Sequence record: PZ242158.1
DNA: 64,000 nt
Strand: one strand, 5' to 3'
Origin: a phage
The translations under genes and the position numbers were made by a program. The first letter of the stretch is position 1; every line of letters starts with the position of its first letter. The notes beneath the pieces were generated by a model. The model did no database searches, had not been told where the DNA came from, and saw only the letters and a list, made by a program, of their open reading frames with translations. Below, piece by piece: positions 2,880 to 48,446 of this stretch.

Positions 2880-5303
2880 ATGAGCATGTGGTCGTTCGAT
2901 TTTGAGTCATCCGGTTTGCTGGAAGACCCAGATCTTTATTATCACTGCGGCCTGTTTAAAGAGCTGAATAAGAACCGTTTTATGCTGTTCCTTCCTCTGA
3001 ATGACCGCACACACTACTCCGAGGAGGATATAGAGAAGGCCAAGAACTTTATTCTGGCAAAGAAAACTCTTTATAAGGATTTTGAAGTTCGCATAGCAGA
3101 TTTTTCGGAGTTGGAAGGTTGGCTTACAGGAAATTCCGACTGGTCACCAACAGCTTTGAACTGCCATAACTGCTACAGTTATGACTTTATGCTGATGGAG
3201 AGATTATCCGGTATTCATTTTGATATGTTCCGTGATCCTAAATGCATGGGGACTATCAACGACCACCAGGTTAACCTGTTTGATACGTTGGCTATGAGCC
3301 GAATCTTGTGGCCTGATCGCCCTTTACCAAAAGGTTGTCCGGACGCTGTATTCAACCCGGTTACTAAGAAAATGCAACCTGTTGGTCCTCACGGCCTTAT
3401 GGCATGGGGCTACGCCCTTGGTAACCAGAAAGTTCAAATTGATGACTGGCGCGATCTTCCGCTGTGGAAATATGTGGATCGTGTGTTCGAGGACGTTATC
3501 ATCCAGGAGTTGCTCTGGAAAGAGTTGGTAGCGGAATCAAAAGGTGTATTCTACGGCAAATCTGACATGCAGAACTTTATGTATGACCCTGCCAAAGAGA
3601 AGCCTAAAGGATTCAAGAAGATTACCTGGAAGAATGCATTACGCCGAGGCATGCTGCAGCATTTCCTGATGGAGCTGCAGGCTCGACAGGGTGTGTATTT
3701 CGACATAGATGGGGCTATTGCTTTACGTGACCGCTGCGATGCGTGGATGAAAGAGATCGCTGATCGTGTTGAACCACAACTTCCTTTAAAAGAGTTATCA
3801 ATGTCTCAGCGGCCTAAGTTCCCTGAAAAGCCGTTTAACCAGGATGGGACAATCTCCAATAATGGTTGGAAATGGTTAAAAGACAAGCTTGGCTACCCTG
3901 TGGACATGAGTGCTTTAGAATTCAAAGCTCCTCCTAAGCGAGCATTTACCTCCACAGGAGATGTCAGTAAGATGGGGATAAAATGGTGTGAAGAGATGGG
4001 CTGTAAAGACCCTGACAAGATGGCGGATTTCTTGAGGGGCTATATCAAGGGCACCTCCACACCACAACCTTTACCTAAAGAGCTAATGGATCAGGCAATA
4101 AGTGATCTACAGCAGAAGCGAATGCCTGACTGCAAGATACCTATGAAAATCAGTAATCAGGACGATATTAAGCGATACCTGATCAGTGCTGGTTGGCTTC
4201 CGACAATGTGGAGAACTAAGGATGTAACTAAAGACAGCAAGAAGAAAGCTCTACCTGATGCAGATGTTGATGCACGAGTGTATGCATATATGGACGAGCT
4301 TTTAGAGTCAGAGTATTGTGACCTAATTATCAACTTCTGGAACAAAACTGATGCTAAGTTCCAGACAACCGTGCACAAGTTCCGAAGCTTTCCTAACTCC
4401 GAAAGGATTAAAAAGGAAGTATTCGGGAAAATACGTAGAAAAGCTAGGGCACTTATTACTTCTCCGCAACTGAAAGATACGTTTGGACACCTATGCCCGA
4501 ATCTTGAAAAATTGAACGGAGAGATGGCTAAAGATATCGTCTTGTGGTTATCATTGCGAAACCGCAGATCGGTCCTTGATCCAATCAAGGAGGATAAGGT
4601 TGATACTGGTCTTCTTAATCACCCACGTTTGAAGATTGACCATAAGCTTCCTGCTAAAAGTTCTGGATTAACAAACACTTCCCGACAGAAACACAGTATT
4701 TGTGCAAACATGCCTAAACCATCTCCTAAAGTGGTTATGGGTAAAGAGATGCGTAGTCTGTGGGGTGTTCCTCCAGGATACTTTGAGATCGGTATTGACG
4801 GGTCCAACTTAGAGCAGCTTATCGGGGCTTGGGGTGCCTTTGAGTTCGACAACGGCCTGTATTACGATGTTGTAAGTAACGGGGACGCACACCAAAACAA
4901 TGCTGAGGCATATACAAAAGTAGCAGGTAGAGAGGTGTCTCGTAACGACGGTAAACCTATCACGTATGGGGTTATGTATGGGGCACAAAAAGATAAAGTT
5001 GCAGATATGCTGGACATCTCTCCAGAGTTGGGACAAAGGGTAATCGATGCACTCTGGGATGCCAACCCTGGTCTTAAGGGGCGTAAAGAAGATCTGGAGA
5101 AATTCTGGGAAGCAACGGGTAAGAAGTTTATCTACTCTTTTGATGGTCATGCTATCTGGACCCGATCTAAACACTCTTTACTTAATGCATACCAACAAAA
5201 TGGCGGCGCATCGTTGTGTGACTTAGTTGGGATACTCATGCACCATCAAATGGTGAAGCGTGGGTGGTACGATGAAGGTGTTCGTCGTATTATCTATTAC
5301 CAT
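2880..5303 (+). CDS. DNA polymerase, family A, exon 1
   Basis: AAGGAG RBS; exo motifs FDFESSG and HNCYSYD; motif B KPITYGVMYG; ORF stops one codon after the His where motif C (HDE) is expected. Confidence 0.8.
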
Positions 5304-6145
5304 AAATAACATTGTGGCTTCGTGCAGTGATGCACGTCGAAAACCTCTTTAATTGACGGGAAGGCTAAGTTGACTTTTACACCTAAACATGGTAAAAGCT
5401 CAATATGCTAATCCGCAGCGAAGACTAAAGGGGTGTAGTTAAAATGGCTAGATCAGTTGATTATCACGGATATACCGTGTTTGATGATGGAACAATACCT
5501 TTATCGAAACGTGATCATACAACAATGTTTTGTTTTGATAATGGTCGAGGTTACCTTTGCGTAACCATGTTCATCGAGGGGAAGCAGTGCACAAAAGGTG
5601 TCCACCACTTGGTTGCTGAATGCTTTGTATCAAACCCTGATCCTGAAAGGCTCACATGGGTGAACCATAAGGACGGAAACAAATACAACAATGCATACTG
5701 GAACCTTGAATGGACCACCCCTGGTGGAAATATCAAACACGCTTATGATAATGACCTCAGAGTAAGGCCAGTCGGTGAGTATAATGCCAACGCTGTACTG
5801 ACCGAGGATGAGGTAACGGAGATTTGCGAACTGTTACAGAGTGGTCTACGACAATGCGAGATTAGGGATCTTGGGTATCCTTATGAGACGGTCAGAGCCA
5901 TAAAGCAAAGAAGACAGTGGAAACATATCTCTAAAAACTACACCTGGTAGTAACGTTCAGAGACTATCGAAAGCATAGCGCCAACATAAATTGGTGCGAA
6001 GAAGCGAGTAGAGTAGGCCAGCAAGTGCGGTCGAAATGGGAGGTGCCTTGGTAACAAGGTAGTGAGATAGTCCGATCCATACAGGAAACTGTATGGCTGT
6101 GCACGTAATGGTGCGGGGTAGCTTAACGACCTACCTGAACTATTG
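5304..6145 (+). mobile_element. Group I intron in DNA polymerase gene, carrying an HNH homing endonuclease ORF
   Basis: 5' exon ends in U, intron ends in G; P-like AATTGACGGGAAGG (~5350), Q-like AATCCGCAGC (~5410), R-like GTTCAGAGACTA (~5955), S-like GAGATAGTCC (~6064); boundaries approximate. Confidence 0.7.
5444..5950 (+). CDS. HNH homing endonuclease (intron-encoded)
   Basis: HNH signature VNHKDGNKYNNAYWNLEW; C-terminal helix-turn-helix-like module; lies between Q and R elements of the intron. Confidence 0.8.
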   Translation: MARSVDYHGYTVFDDGTIPLSKRDHTTMFCFDNGRGYLCVTMFIEGKQCTKGVHHLVAECFVSNPDPERLTWVNHKDGNKYNNAYWNLEWTTPGGNIKHAYDNDLRVRPVGEYNANAVLTEDEVTEICELLQSGLRQCEIRDLGYPYETVRAIKQRRQWKHISKNYTW

Positions 6146-6499
6146 GATGAGTACCAACTTCAGGTCCCTGACACACCTAAGTATAAGACTGTGTACACCT
6201 TCGACACAATTGAAGAATTGGAAGCATTTAAGGCAGAGCAGGAGGCCAAACTTCATGTGTTCGACGGTCATAAGTACAAAAAGGCACGCAAGGATGAAAA
6301 CGGAAACGAAGTGGTTGACAGAGACGGAAACACGGTGTACGATCCTATCCTGAACGATGACGGAAAGCTTGAACTTATCTGGAGCCCTGTGGGTGAAATG
6401 GTGGTGCATTGCTTCTGGCAAGCTTCTAAAATGATGGGAGTCCCGTTCCAGATCACAGGTGAATACTTGTGTGGTCGTAACTGGGGTGATTGTCACTAA
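6146..6499 (+). CDS. DNA polymerase, family A, exon 2
   Basis: Begins DEYQLQV, completing motif C as YYH|DEY; ends GRNWGDCH, the canonical Pol A C-terminus; no RBS of its own; ORF-track start is a TTG at 6143. Confidence 0.7.
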   Translation, partial: DEYQLQVPDTPKYKTVYTFDTIEELEAFKAEQEAKLHVFDGHKYKKARKDENGNEVVDRDGNTVYDPILNDDGKLELIWSPVGEMVVHCFWQASKMMGVPFQITGEYLCGRNWGDCH

Positions 6500-6548
6500 T
6501 GTAAACTATCAACACATGGAAGTGTTGTTGAGCAAAGAGGAGACTTTT

Positions 6549-45035: not shown

Positions 45036-46028
45036 CTACAGGTTATTACCTGTCCTATGTTTACAACAAATCTCTCTATGCGCTGATTCTACCATACTGA
45101 ACACTTCAGGTCTGTAGTTAAAGAATTCGGTACTACCATCAAATTTTACAGGGAAGTTTATTTTATATTTACTGAAGGCTTTGTGCATAGATTTTTCTAC
45201 AGCCAGCATGTTTTCAGTTGATCCTTCCAACGTTTTCACTATGTGAAGATCGCGGATACCAGCTCCAGATCTTTGTGCACTTTTAAGTATCTGGTCTCTT
45301 CGCTTACTTTCATTATGACTGACCCCTATTTTCATAAATGTAGGTACTTCTGGATCATCAACCATAATGTAGAGTTTTCCGTTATCGTGTGATAAAAATC
45401 CTGTTTTAGCGCATCTAGGGCAAGCATGTCCCTGCTTAAGACTGCTTGGTACGGTTAACCATGTGTGGCTACAACCTTTACAGCAGCACAGGACTTTCTT
45501 ATCCCACCCAATAATTTCTTCCAATATCTCAACATAAGGATTTCTACTTCTTATGGACTCAACCCACTTTTCGTGTGGTGATGTTTTACTTTGTGAGATT
45601 CTTGACCCCTTGCAAACTGGACAACCTCTTTTCAAATTTATATGGTTATCAGGTGTCTGTGTAAAGTGATTTCCACAAGTGTTGCAGATTATTTCTACCC
45701 TGTCTTTGCAAGTCTTGTAGTATACGAGAGAGTAGTCATATTTATCTCCATGGATTTCTTTGGCCCTTTCTACAAATTTAAGACCTTTATTACACTTTGC
45801 AGCACGAGAAAGTTTTGCACAAAAAGGACAACCACGACCTTGCAAGTGTTTACAAGGTGCTTGCATAAAATCCCCATGGATTTGGCAGGTAATGCAAACC
45901 TTCGCATAGCAATCCACGTACACTGTTTTCGTGTAATCGTATTTATAACCGTGAATGATTTTCGCCTTCTCTATAAACTCTTCTGTTGATAATTTAGCCA
46001 TTTCTTGTTTCCTAACTTCCCTAAACAT
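45036..46028 (-). CDS. homing-endonuclease-like protein (repeated zinc-binding modules plus T5orf172/GIY-YIG-like C-terminal domain)
   Basis: Three repeats of HG-KYDYS...C..C...G.F...P..H...GCP.C; C-terminal GKLYIM...KIGVS block. Confidence 0.5.
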   Translation of the reverse strand: MFREVRKQEMAKLSTEEFIEKAKIIHGYKYDYTKTVYVDCYAKVCITCQIHGDFMQAPCKHLQGRGCPFCAKLSRAAKCNKGLKFVERAKEIHGDKYDYSLVYYKTCKDRVEIICNTCGNHFTQTPDNHINLKRGCPVCKGSRISQSKTSPHEKWVESIRSRNPYVEILEEIIGWDKKVLCCCKGCSHTWLTVPSSLKQGHACPRCAKTGFLSHDNGKLYIMVDDPEVPTFMKIGVSHNESKRRDQILKSAQRSGAGIRDLHIVKTLEGSTENMLAVEKSMHKAFSKYKINFPVKFDGSTEFFNYRPEVFSMVESAHREICCKHRTGNNL

Positions 46029-46065: not shown

Positions 46066-47328
46066 TCAGCAACCACAACTTCCGTAGTGCTTAACTCGCT
46101 CGATAACTTCCGCTTGCTTACCTTTATTGTAAGGACGGGAGTTAGGACTGGAAAGATATCCAGACACTCTTCGGATCACTGAGATATATTGTTCATCGTG
46201 GCATCCGCACGCAGGGCAGCAGAACCCTTTAGCTGTTGCACTGAACTCACCAGAGAAACCACACTTGAGACATTTATCCACAGGTTGGTTAATACCAAAA
46301 TACATAATATGTTTATACCCGAAGTCAACAAGAGCCTCTAAAGCATCCAGGTTGTTTTTCAGGTTAGGTGTCTCTACGTATCCAATGTTGCCACCAGAGG
46401 AGATCATAGCAAAACCTTCCTCATACTCCCACTTATCAAAAGGAGAGCTATTTATCCACACTGGCTGATGGAAACTGTTGGTGAGATATTCATGCTCGTG
46501 CTTCAACACTTCCGGGTATTCACGATCCAGACAGGTTGCAGCTTTATAGCATAGACTCTCAGAAGGAGTGCCGTACAAGCTAAATGCTAGTCTACTTTCC
46601 TTCTTGTATCGCTCACAAGCATCTCTCATGTGCTGAAGGATTCCAAGAGCTAAAGCCTTGTCACCCTCTCTGCCCAAAATCTGACAGGTTTCATACACAC
46701 CAATATACCCAATACTGATGGAAGCGTACCCGTCATAGAAGAGTTTATCAATACTCTCTTCAGGATCCAGGCGAGCAAGAGCGCCTTCACACCACATGAT
46801 GGGGTTCTGCCCTGCCTTTGTTCCTTTTAGACGGTTAACCCTTACAAGGTGAGCCTCATATGCAAGATCCAAGTATTCGTCAAGAACTGCAAAGAAATCA
46901 ACACCTTCCGTCTTAGCTTTTGCCGCAATCATTGGCAGGTTAAGGCTAACAACGCCTAAGTTAAATCTGCCAAGGTATTTCTCCTCGCCTGTTTCCAAGT
47001 CATTGTATTTGCTAAGAAAACTCCTGCAACCCATGCTAGTTACTTTGCCATCTGTCGAGCCTGTCACTTTTCTATTTAGTGGTACAGATACGAAGTCAGG
47101 ATAGATACGTTCTGCACAGCATTCCAGAGCTAATCGTTTCAAATCATAGTTAGGATCCCCAGGGTTCATGTTGACACCCTCTTCCAGGAAGAACAGCACT
47201 TTAGGGAACACAGGTGTGATACGTTCTTCACCAAGACCCATTTTGTGGACTTTCAAGTAATTTTTGGTAATCATTCTACCAAAGACCGAAGTGTCCAAAC
47301 CTAAACTTAATGTGATAAAAGGGGTTTG
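46066..47328 (-). CDS. nrdD: anaerobic ribonucleoside-triphosphate reductase, exon 2
   Basis: Begins QTPFITLSLGL (aligns to E. coli NrdD QTPFVTFGFGL); C-terminal zinc site CLKCGF...CPACGC and glycyl-radical region RRVSGYLS. Confidence 0.8.
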   Translation of the reverse strand, partial: QTPFITLSLGLDTSVFGRMITKNYLKVHKMGLGEERITPVFPKVLFFLEEGVNMNPGDPNYDLKRLALECCAERIYPDFVSVPLNRKVTGSTDGKVTSMGCRSFLSKYNDLETGEEKYLGRFNLGVVSLNLPMIAAKAKTEGVDFFAVLDEYLDLAYEAHLVRVNRLKGTKAGQNPIMWCEGALARLDPEESIDKLFYDGYASISIGYIGVYETCQILGREGDKALALGILQHMRDACERYKKESRLAFSLYGTPSESLCYKAATCLDREYPEVLKHEHEYLTNSFHQPVWINSSPFDKWEYEEGFAMISSGGNIGYVETPNLKNNLDALEALVDFGYKHIMYFGINQPVDKCLKCGFSGEFSATAKGFCCPACGCHDEQYISVIRRVSGYLSSPNSRPYNKGKQAEVIERVKHYGSCGC

Positions 47329-47585
47329 CGGTCCCCACCCTTATGTTTCCACAAGGCCAGACTATCTCTTGCCTGAAATCACACCGTGTGATTCTTAATC
47401 AGACCCCTGCGTTTCGGAATCTTCCATAATCCCTACACCAAAAGGTTAGTCGTTACAACCGCCTCACTCCTTGTGAAGCTAGTCACGGGATTGGCATAGC
47501 TTTCGCCTTAGCGTTCCCCGTTAGCCAGCGATCAGCTGACCCCTCATACTGAGGTTAGCAGAGTTTTAAAACGGCCAGTTTGTTA
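47329..47585 (-). other. ORF-less group I intron in nrdD (~257 nt)
   Basis: Exon 1 ends ...VNG then in-frame TAA; 5' exon ends in U, intron ends in G; guide GCCGUU pairs with exon AACGGU; P/Q/R/S-like elements present; boundaries approximate. Confidence 0.65.
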
Positions 47586-48446
47586 ACCGTTTACCGAGGT
47601 TAGTGTGTTGATCTGATAAAGCAACGTCTGCATGCTGTCAAACACGTCTTTATCTGTCATTTGCATTGCAACAGTTTCAGCATCCGGCAACCAATGTTCC
47701 TGGCAAAATTTAAGGTTCTTCTCATAGGTTGCTTCAGCATACTGTGCCAGATAATGATCAATATGGCTCATAGTCTGACCACCATATTGAGCACTAGCTA
47801 CCGCGCTAGAGATTTGACTAAGGATTGTTGTTGCAACCCCTATTGACTTCGGCTTACTGACATGGGCGTTGCCAATGTTGAATCCGTTTTCCAACATATC
47901 TGGATAATTTACCAAACAACAGTTTGTTAACGGACTGATCAAGTAGTCAAGATCATGCACATGGATGAAGCCTTTATTGTGCTCTTCTGAAACACGGTCT
48001 GGCAGGATCTGTGTTGATGCAAGGTGTTTGCTAAGGATGCCTGCAAGCAGGTCACGATGAGTGTGTACATGATTAGTGGGCTTATTTGCGTTTTCTTTTG
48101 TAAATTCATCACAAGTTCGATCCAAGAAGCCACTAATATCTGCAAGCAGTTTTCCACCTGCCTCTCTGTTATTATCTCTTGTCTGTCTATACTGGATGTA
48201 TTCTCTGGCTGCACATTTTAAACCCATATCCATAAGAGCATCTTCAACAAGGATATGGATATTTTTTACAGAGATCGTGCACTGGTCGGTTGGTAGATTG
48301 TTAGCAACAACTTCATTAACCGCGCAGGCGATCCGGTAAGCTTCTTCTTCAGTATGTCCAGACTCAAGTAAGGCGGACTCTGCCGCCTTGATCACCTTAA
48401 TTCCGTTATAGAACTCTTCTCTACCGTCCCGTTTTACAACTTTCAC
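47586..48446 (-). CDS. nrdD: anaerobic ribonucleoside-triphosphate reductase, exon 1
   Basis: ATP-cone-like N-terminus MKVVKRDGREEFY; ends ...NTLTSVNG where E. coli NrdD continues ANGQTPF. Confidence 0.8.

Follow-up and report, generated by a model that had tools for sequence, protein, structure and literature searches.

The family A DNA polymerase gene of the phage studied here is interrupted within its motif C. The interruption, at positions 5304 to 6145 of the 64,000-nt stretch of DNA analyzed (the window), is very probably a mobile IA2-type group I intron in the polymerase gene of a Vequintavirus. The window derives from an rV5-like E. coli myophage of this genus; over positions 2880-6500 it shares 98.5% identity with Shigella phage CM1 and 95-98% with dozens of other phages. 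Phage polymerase genes have been known since the 1990s-2000s to harbor mobile group I introns with HNH nickases, also at this site. The present one is a textbook example that brings no new principle, and it is already annotated in close relatives. The coordinates of its features are collected in Table 1.

WalterGehring (MZ501111) has an intron and HNH protein identical to those of the window, and its polymerase CDS is annotated as a join of two parts that enclose the endonuclease gene. According to the BASEL phage paper, intron boundaries were annotated in those genomes. In the record of LL12 (MH491969) the polymerase is an 'intron-interrupted gene', and the genome announcement of that phage also mentions the intron. 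The same intron is annotated among other Vequintavirus genomes (CM1, FV3 and others), where the annotation gives its location alone. In the rV5 genome paper of 2013 (PMC3606486) the polymerase is given as 775 aa, and introns are reported for the terminase gene only. The rV5 polymerase gene (NC_011041) carries a 276-nt intron (span 1643 in the census described below), and the published 775-aa protein probably represents only exon 1. Public records of these phages mostly split the polymerase into two or three unrelated CDSs. The true product here would be a 925-aa enzyme, whose active site is predicted to be present only after RNA splicing.

Table 1. Positions in the window of the polymerase exons, the intron and its structural elements
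Feature	Position	Strand	Basis or remark
DNA polymerase (family A) exon 1, 808 codons, ending ...RRIIYYH	2880-5303	+	ORF list, sequence, phrog_17 E=1e-90
P1, 5300-5305 with 5312-5317	5300-5317	+	5' splice site follows U5303 (U.G with G5314)
Group I intron, IA2-type, 842 nt	5304-6145	+	Rfam RF00028, intron-less nimi allele, relatives, covariation
P2 hairpin	5321-5336	+	Compensatory changes in 5/6 pairs
Core 5' half	5344-5419	+	Rfam alignment and 14-sequence structure
P3 5' strand	5344-5349	+	
P4	5354-5360/5412-5417	+	
P5	5364-5365/5407-5408	+	
P5a/b	5369-5380/5392-5404	+	
P6 5' strand	5418-5419	+	
P6a extension carrying endonuclease gene	5424-5951	+	Long-range stem closes loop
HNH homing endonuclease gene, 168 aa, I-HmuI-like	5444-5950	+	phrog_59 E=9e-38; PDB 1U3E E=4.5e-6
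Core 3' half	5955-6136	+	Rfam alignment and 14-sequence structure
P6 3' strand	5955-5956	+	
P7 5' strand	5960-5966	+	
P7.1	5978-5997	+	Exact pairing tentative
GUA linker between P7.1 and P7.2		+	
P7.2	6016-6032	+	
P3 3' strand	6038-6043	+	
P8	6044-6061	+	
P7 3' strand	6068-6073	+	
P9	6077-6096	+	
P9.1	6100-6115	+	
P9.2	6116-6136	+	
Terminal intron G (omega-G), 3' splice site	6145	+	Sequence; invariant in all 16 related introns
DNA polymerase exon 2, 117 codons and stop	6146-6499	+	ORF list, sequence, profile match, T7 gp5 alignment
Silent-difference cluster relative to intron-less allele	6146-6178	+	Putative endonuclease target or co-conversion tract

The interrupted polymerase gene

The upstream neighbor of the polymerase is a T7 gp4-like primase/helicase gene (743-2821; phrog_239, E=6e-160). 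The first polymerase ORF (2880-5309, 809 aa) ends ...RRIIYYH-K-stop. Its His codon (5301-5303) is followed by AAA and TAA, and translation of unspliced RNA would add a Lys before the stop UAA at 5307-5309. A second frame opens with GAT GAG TAC at 6146 (DEYQLQV, containing the Asp-Glu of motif C) and ends ...GRNWGDCH-stop at 6499. The sequence shows neither an ATG nor a Shine-Dalgarno for exon 2. Its sole possible start is a TTG at 6143, one codon upstream and also lacking a Shine-Dalgarno, and there is a stop in the same frame at 6119-6121. Both frames had been recognized in the first-pass annotation, which joined them at H/DEY (the slash marking the junction) to give a good motif C, noted a 5' exon ending in U and an intron ending in G, and held that the polymerase would otherwise lack its Asp-Glu pair. 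The analysis bears out each of these points.

The joined exons encode a 925-aa polymerase with the junction-spanning peptide ...IIYYHDEYQLQVPDTPK, and the predicted junction sequence of the spliced allele in this phage is GATGAGTACCAACTTCAGGTC. The spliced C-terminal region aligns with residues 468-658 of T7 DNA polymerase (gp5) with E=1.7e-13, a comparison that the first-pass annotation had proposed. Once the exons are joined, family A motifs A, B and C are found in order. Motif A is GIDGSNLE in the window and GIDASGLE in T7, and motif B is KPITYGVMYGA and KTFIYGFLYGA respectively. In motif C, where the HDE is restored, spliced RRIIYYHDEYQL corresponds to AYMAWVHDEIQV, and IIYYHDEYQL pairs with MAWVHDEIQV (residues 649-658). 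The junction falls between T7 H653 and D654-E655, and unspliced RNA would therefore give a polymerase devoid of the motif C carboxylates. We take these T7 residues to be equivalent to H881-D882-E883 of E. coli Pol I. The last part of exon 1 matches PHROG profile 8888 over 1-185 and exon 2 matches it over 186-295, with neither gap nor overlap; in uninterrupted homologues the two segments are thus directly adjacent. The Pfam DNA_pol_A score rises from 27.9 bits unspliced to 31.8 spliced, both below the 34.3 cut-off.

Comparison with intron-less alleles places the boundaries exactly where the first-pass annotation had put them. A 216-aa query across the spliced junction matches phages nimi, nomine and 'A12a' in a single piece with 99.5-100% identity, and the joined motif C is identical to that of the uninterrupted nimi polymerase. 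The alleles of these three phages and of one IMG/VR locus (L008) encode exactly RIIYYHDEYQLQV, uninterrupted. In nimi the site is ...TATTACCAT/GACGAATAT..., with GACGAA directly after the junction and the nimi-type exon 2 sequence GACGAATATCAGCTTCAAGTA. The window at the same site has ...TATTACCAT/AAATAACATTGTGGC...CTATTG/GATGAGTAC.... Neither boundary base can slide relative to nimi. The intron is therefore unambiguously 842 nt in length, with U5303 the last base of exon 1 and G6145 the last of the intron.

A12a is one of ~16-20 unannotated GenBank 'Campylobacter phage' records (MG0656xx; A12a, C7, C9, C12, A135 and others). In the polymerase and nrdD regions these are 87-97% identical to E. 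coli Vequintavirus (95-97% over exons). The records, attributed to Campylobacter jejuni phages, are probably mislabelled or contaminant assemblies.

Two T7-like phages, ΦI and W31, have introns at site 881 of Pol I, which is the His of motif C; PMC3428280 summarizes them as IA2 introns with an HNH gene in P6a and a ribosome-binding site within the intron structure. The window junction, H/DE at T7 H653/D654, lies at this site, and judged from that summary the architecture is the same. The phages differ in that ΦI and W31 are podoviruses, not rV5-like myoviruses. A further case in the same gene is Certrevirus CB7, a member of the same subfamily (Vequintavirinae), whose HNH-containing polymerase introns were found to be spliced by RT-PCR (PMC7344957). 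CB7 differs in having two introns in the gene, and the comparison is by gene rather than by the motif C site.

Folding of the intervening RNA

A default Rfam scan of the whole 64-kb window gave no match, and the intron was found only with a permissive threshold. Intron_gpI (RF00028) then matched 5294-6095 with 40.5 bits (local E=1.2e-8, or 7.2e-7 when the full 64 kb are searched). The covariance-model search put forward in the first-pass annotation thus yielded the expected family, but with a score short of the Rfam gathering score of 50 bits. The alignment contains inserts of 510 nt in the P6 loop and 68 nt between the P7 5' and P3 3' strands, and the P6-loop insert is most likely the cause of the low score. 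Relatives that lack the endonuclease gene pass the threshold, i.e. JEP1 (328 nt, 73.7 bits), JLBYU08 (329 nt, 72.5 bits) and LL12 (276 nt, 64.7 bits). The core of the JEP1 intron is ~97% identical to that of the window.

We aligned 14 intron cores from six phage groups with the endonuclease interior removed, giving 376 columns, and scored helices P1 to P9.2 including the P3/P7 pseudoknot. Partners slid by 1-3 columns served as the control. Standard pairs are formed in 94.8% of the cells, compared with 36-42% using slid partners. Changes on both sides that preserve pairing occur in 33 of the 85 pairs, and the observed covariation score was reached by none of 500 shuffles. These compensatory changes are present in P2, P3, P7, P8, P9, P9.1 and P9.2, the pseudoknot contributing three pairs in P3 and two in P7. 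All six pairs of P1 are invariant in the 14 sequences, so covariation is uninformative for this helix. All related introns have the same U.G wobble (U5303.G5314) at the 5' splice site. The 33 compensated pairs indicate a ribozyme fold kept by selection, which would be pointless in an RNA that is not spliced. The covariance model, homology to relatives that pass the threshold and covariation together support the assignment of the intervening RNA as a group I intron, with the P, Q, R and S-like core elements that the first-pass annotation had noted.

PMC3428280 defines IA2 introns by two extra helices, P7.1 and P7.2, lying between the P7 5' and P3 3' strands and joined by G-U-A. Both hairpins are found here, with an invariant GUAG between them. 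The internal guide sequence CAUU (5310-5313) could additionally pair with GAUG at the start of exon 2 (6146-6149) to form P10. Such a helix would span no more than 4 bp, with imperfect pairing in SPA01.

In many Vequintavirus genomes, for example JohannBauhin, a ~50-nt segment of the intron core, running roughly from the P4 3' to the P7 5' strand, has a 94% match within or close to the large terminase gene. This is consistent with the terminase introns of rV5 being related to the polymerase intron. The terminase gene was not located within the window.

The endonuclease gene and intron mobility

The HNH open reading frame lies in the P6 loop, between Q (the P4 3' strand) and R (the P7 5' strand) in the Rfam alignment, which is where the first-pass annotation had placed it. 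The best match of its product to a solved structure is I-HmuI (1U3E), with ~30% similarity over roughly 90 residues. In I-HmuI, H75 is the catalytic histidine, and Asp74 and Asn96 bind metal. The equivalents of His75 and Asn96 are conserved in our protein, and that of Asp74 is Asn (VNHKDG). The SPA01 and 2L372D homologues share this Asn, and the SSE121 homologue keeps Asp. The Pfam HNH_3 score is 17.7 bits, under the gathering score of 24.8, while the SSE121 homologue (~55% identical, as judged by the match to the closely related AV124) scores 39.6 bits. An NCBIfam search with the HNH protein returned no meaningful family. Given the HNH_3 score and the substitution of Asp74, activity of the protein is not assured. 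The reading frame is intact in all copies carrying it, and dN/dS is 0.14 relative to CM1, 0.07 to Mangalyan and 0.05 to L010, with dS up to 0.78. Such ratios indicate that the protein is under purifying selection.

I-HmuI, the nickase of the SPO1 polymerase intron, belongs to a set of HNH nickases (with I-HmuII, I-BasI and I-PfoP3I) encoded by group I introns in the family A polymerase genes of SPO1, SP82, Bastille and Pf-WMP3. Those introns differ in being inserted at site 674 in the fingers subdomain, according to PMC3428280. HNH homologues in the small phages PP90 and Si3 were considered as T7-like polymerase introns and rejected, since they lie in the head-tail connector gene or early-gene region.

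The P6a extension is closed by a long-range stem of 4+10 bp (5424-5427/5948-5951 and 5431-5440/5936-5945), with a duplex energy of -16.6 kcal/mol compared with -8.7 +/- 2.3 for shuffles. The stem covers a Shine-Dalgarno-like AAGGGG at 5428-5433, pairing its region with the last codons of the HNH frame. Equivalent stems of unrelated sequence are found in SSE121, A5-4 and SPA01. By analogy with other phage introns, described in PMC3428280, the stem may both close P6a and limit translation of the endonuclease.

We sampled 60 of 117 Vequintavirus records, all at least 91% identical. The intron is absent from 28 and present as the 842/843-nt form in 17; a further 14 have an intron without the endonuclease gene, and one is unclear. 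The endonuclease-less forms comprise 11 of 276 nt, including that of rV5 itself, and three of 328/329 nt. There is thus a presence/absence polymorphism at one exact site in near-identical genomes, with identical junction sequences. The 276-nt form (LL12, L009 and rV5, NC_011041/DQ832317) is nearly identical to the window intron at its 5' (P1-P3) and 3' (P9-P9.2) ends. It differs in P5, P7, P7.1 and P8, and parts of its P7, P7.1 and P9 resemble the Seunavirus type. This mixture suggests recombination between intron lineages.

Related introns with 72-77% identity occupy the same YH/DE site in further phages. They are found in Avunavirus 18-1-2, Seunavirus SSE121 and Csp-D17, phage A5-4, Aeromonas phage 2L372D, Pseudomonas phage SPA01, Vibrio phage K460 and two IMG/VR contigs, and by group in Avunavirus, Seunavirus, Pakpunavirus, Plateaulakevirus and Vibrio phages. 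In 2L372D (259-998 of locus L015) the insertion seems to lie in a peripheral loop other than P6, suggesting an independent invasion by an endonuclease gene.

The polymerase gene of the window differs from intron-less nimi at 99 of 2778 sites. Seven silent differences fall in the first 33 nt of exon 2 (+3, +6, +9, +12, +18, +21 and +33), which is the densest 33-nt segment of the gene (mean 1.18; binomial 1.4e-4). The 57 nt upstream of the junction contain none. The cluster fits either an I-HmuI-like enzyme that recognizes exon 2, or co-conversion tracts. We considered whether the silent changes are a strict immunity mark of endonuclease-carrying alleles. This is weakened by L010, which carries the endonuclease and has intron-less-type bases at +6, +9 and +12, and by the endonuclease-less forms, which are intermediate.

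A broader reading is possible, though we regard it as tentative and rather doubtful. All introns at the motif C His/Asp-Glu site might form one horizontally spreading IA2 lineage, with an I-HmuI-like nickase acting on the first ~20-30 nt of exon 2. It would extend from the T7-like podophages (ΦI, AY769989, and W31, AY769990) to at least five other phage groups, these being Vequintavirinae, Pakpunavirus, Plateaulakevirus and two kinds of Vibrio phage. The silent cluster would then be the trace of a continuing conflict, of the kind described for SPO1/SP82, in which endonuclease specificity is set against target immunity or marker exclusion. The literature searched contained no survey of the breadth of such a lineage or of this exon 2 signature.

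An alternative is that the element is a decaying relic, in which the ribozyme, the HNH gene or both are non-functional and homing is no longer promoted. The Asn at the position of Asp74, the sub-threshold HNH_3 score, the frequency of endonuclease-less forms (14/60) and the intron-less-like bases of L010 all point that way. Yet the same Asn occurs in two of the homologues, and the HNH frame is intact in every carrier under the low dN/dS given above. Moreover the polymerase is essential and isolates carrying the intron are viable, so the ribozyme must work. We consider a relic unlikely.

Proposed splicing pathway and alternatives

We propose that the polymerase gene is transcribed as a single pre-mRNA, in which the intron would fold into the P1-P9.2 ribozyme. 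An external guanosine would attack after U5303, paired with G5314 in P1, and the freed end of exon 1 would then attack after G6145. This would join the exons as ...TATTACCAT/GATGAGTAC..., restoring motif C (YYH/DEY) in the 925-aa polymerase, whereas RNA that escaped splicing would yield the 809-aa product with no Asp-Glu pair. The endonuclease would be made from the P6 loop, its ribosome-binding region being paired, in the long-range stem, with the 3' end of the HNH frame. It would nick intron-less alleles near the insertion site, probably within the first ~20-30 nt of exon 2. Recombinational repair during mixed infection would then transfer a copy of the intron, together with its flanking markers, to the allele that lacked it (homing). 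In phage therapy or biocontrol candidates of the genus, intron and endonuclease would thus be selfish markers, movable between co-infecting phages.

If the RNA were not spliced, the polymerase might be assembled from two polypeptides, as for NrdA of Aeromonas phage Aeh1, which is split by mobE. Many GenBank records do list two separate 'DNA polymerase' CDSs, and the CB7 paper includes one non-splicing HNH insertion and cites the Aeh1 precedent (PMC7344957). Against this, the second polypeptide would have to initiate at the TTG at 6143, the frame having neither an ATG nor a Shine-Dalgarno and being closed by a stop shortly upstream. The division would part the His from the Asp-Glu inside one active-site motif, and the conserved ribozyme fold would be left unexplained. 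We therefore judge two assembling polypeptides very improbable. Four further explanations (an intein, programmed frameshifting, translational bypass and an artefact of assembly) are effectively excluded. Nothing specific favors them beyond a separate in-frame insertion in exon 1 of some relatives, while the polymerase frame stops two codons into the insert and the same 842 nt recur in dozens of independently sequenced phages.

The exon 1 insertion just mentioned is 969 nt (323 codons) in length and is found in Mangalyan (L003, 1501-4899), JEP1, VB-EcoM-WM, YP-6 and NHEP1. It is absent from the window. It has a weak Hint_2 match near residue 672, and is probably an intein. It is independent of the intron, since NHEP1 has the insertion and no intron.

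A second group I intron lies elsewhere in the window, on the minus strand within nrdD (anaerobic ribonucleotide reductase). It comprises 257 nt (47329-47585) between exon 1 (47586-48446) and exon 2 (46066-47328), and has no endonuclease gene. Rfam Intron_gpI gives 29.3 bits (E=7.7e-5 locally). The 5' exon closes with a U that pairs with a G of P1, and G is also the last base of the intron. This intron is absent in phage Murica (GGG/CAA), and other relatives have a form ~540 nt longer that contains an HNH gene. Just downstream of nrdD on the minus strand, a 330-aa reading frame (45036-46028) combines a treble-clef zinc finger (DUF4379) with T5orf172/MUG113 (GIY-YIG-like) domains, and may be a free-standing homing-endonuclease-like gene.
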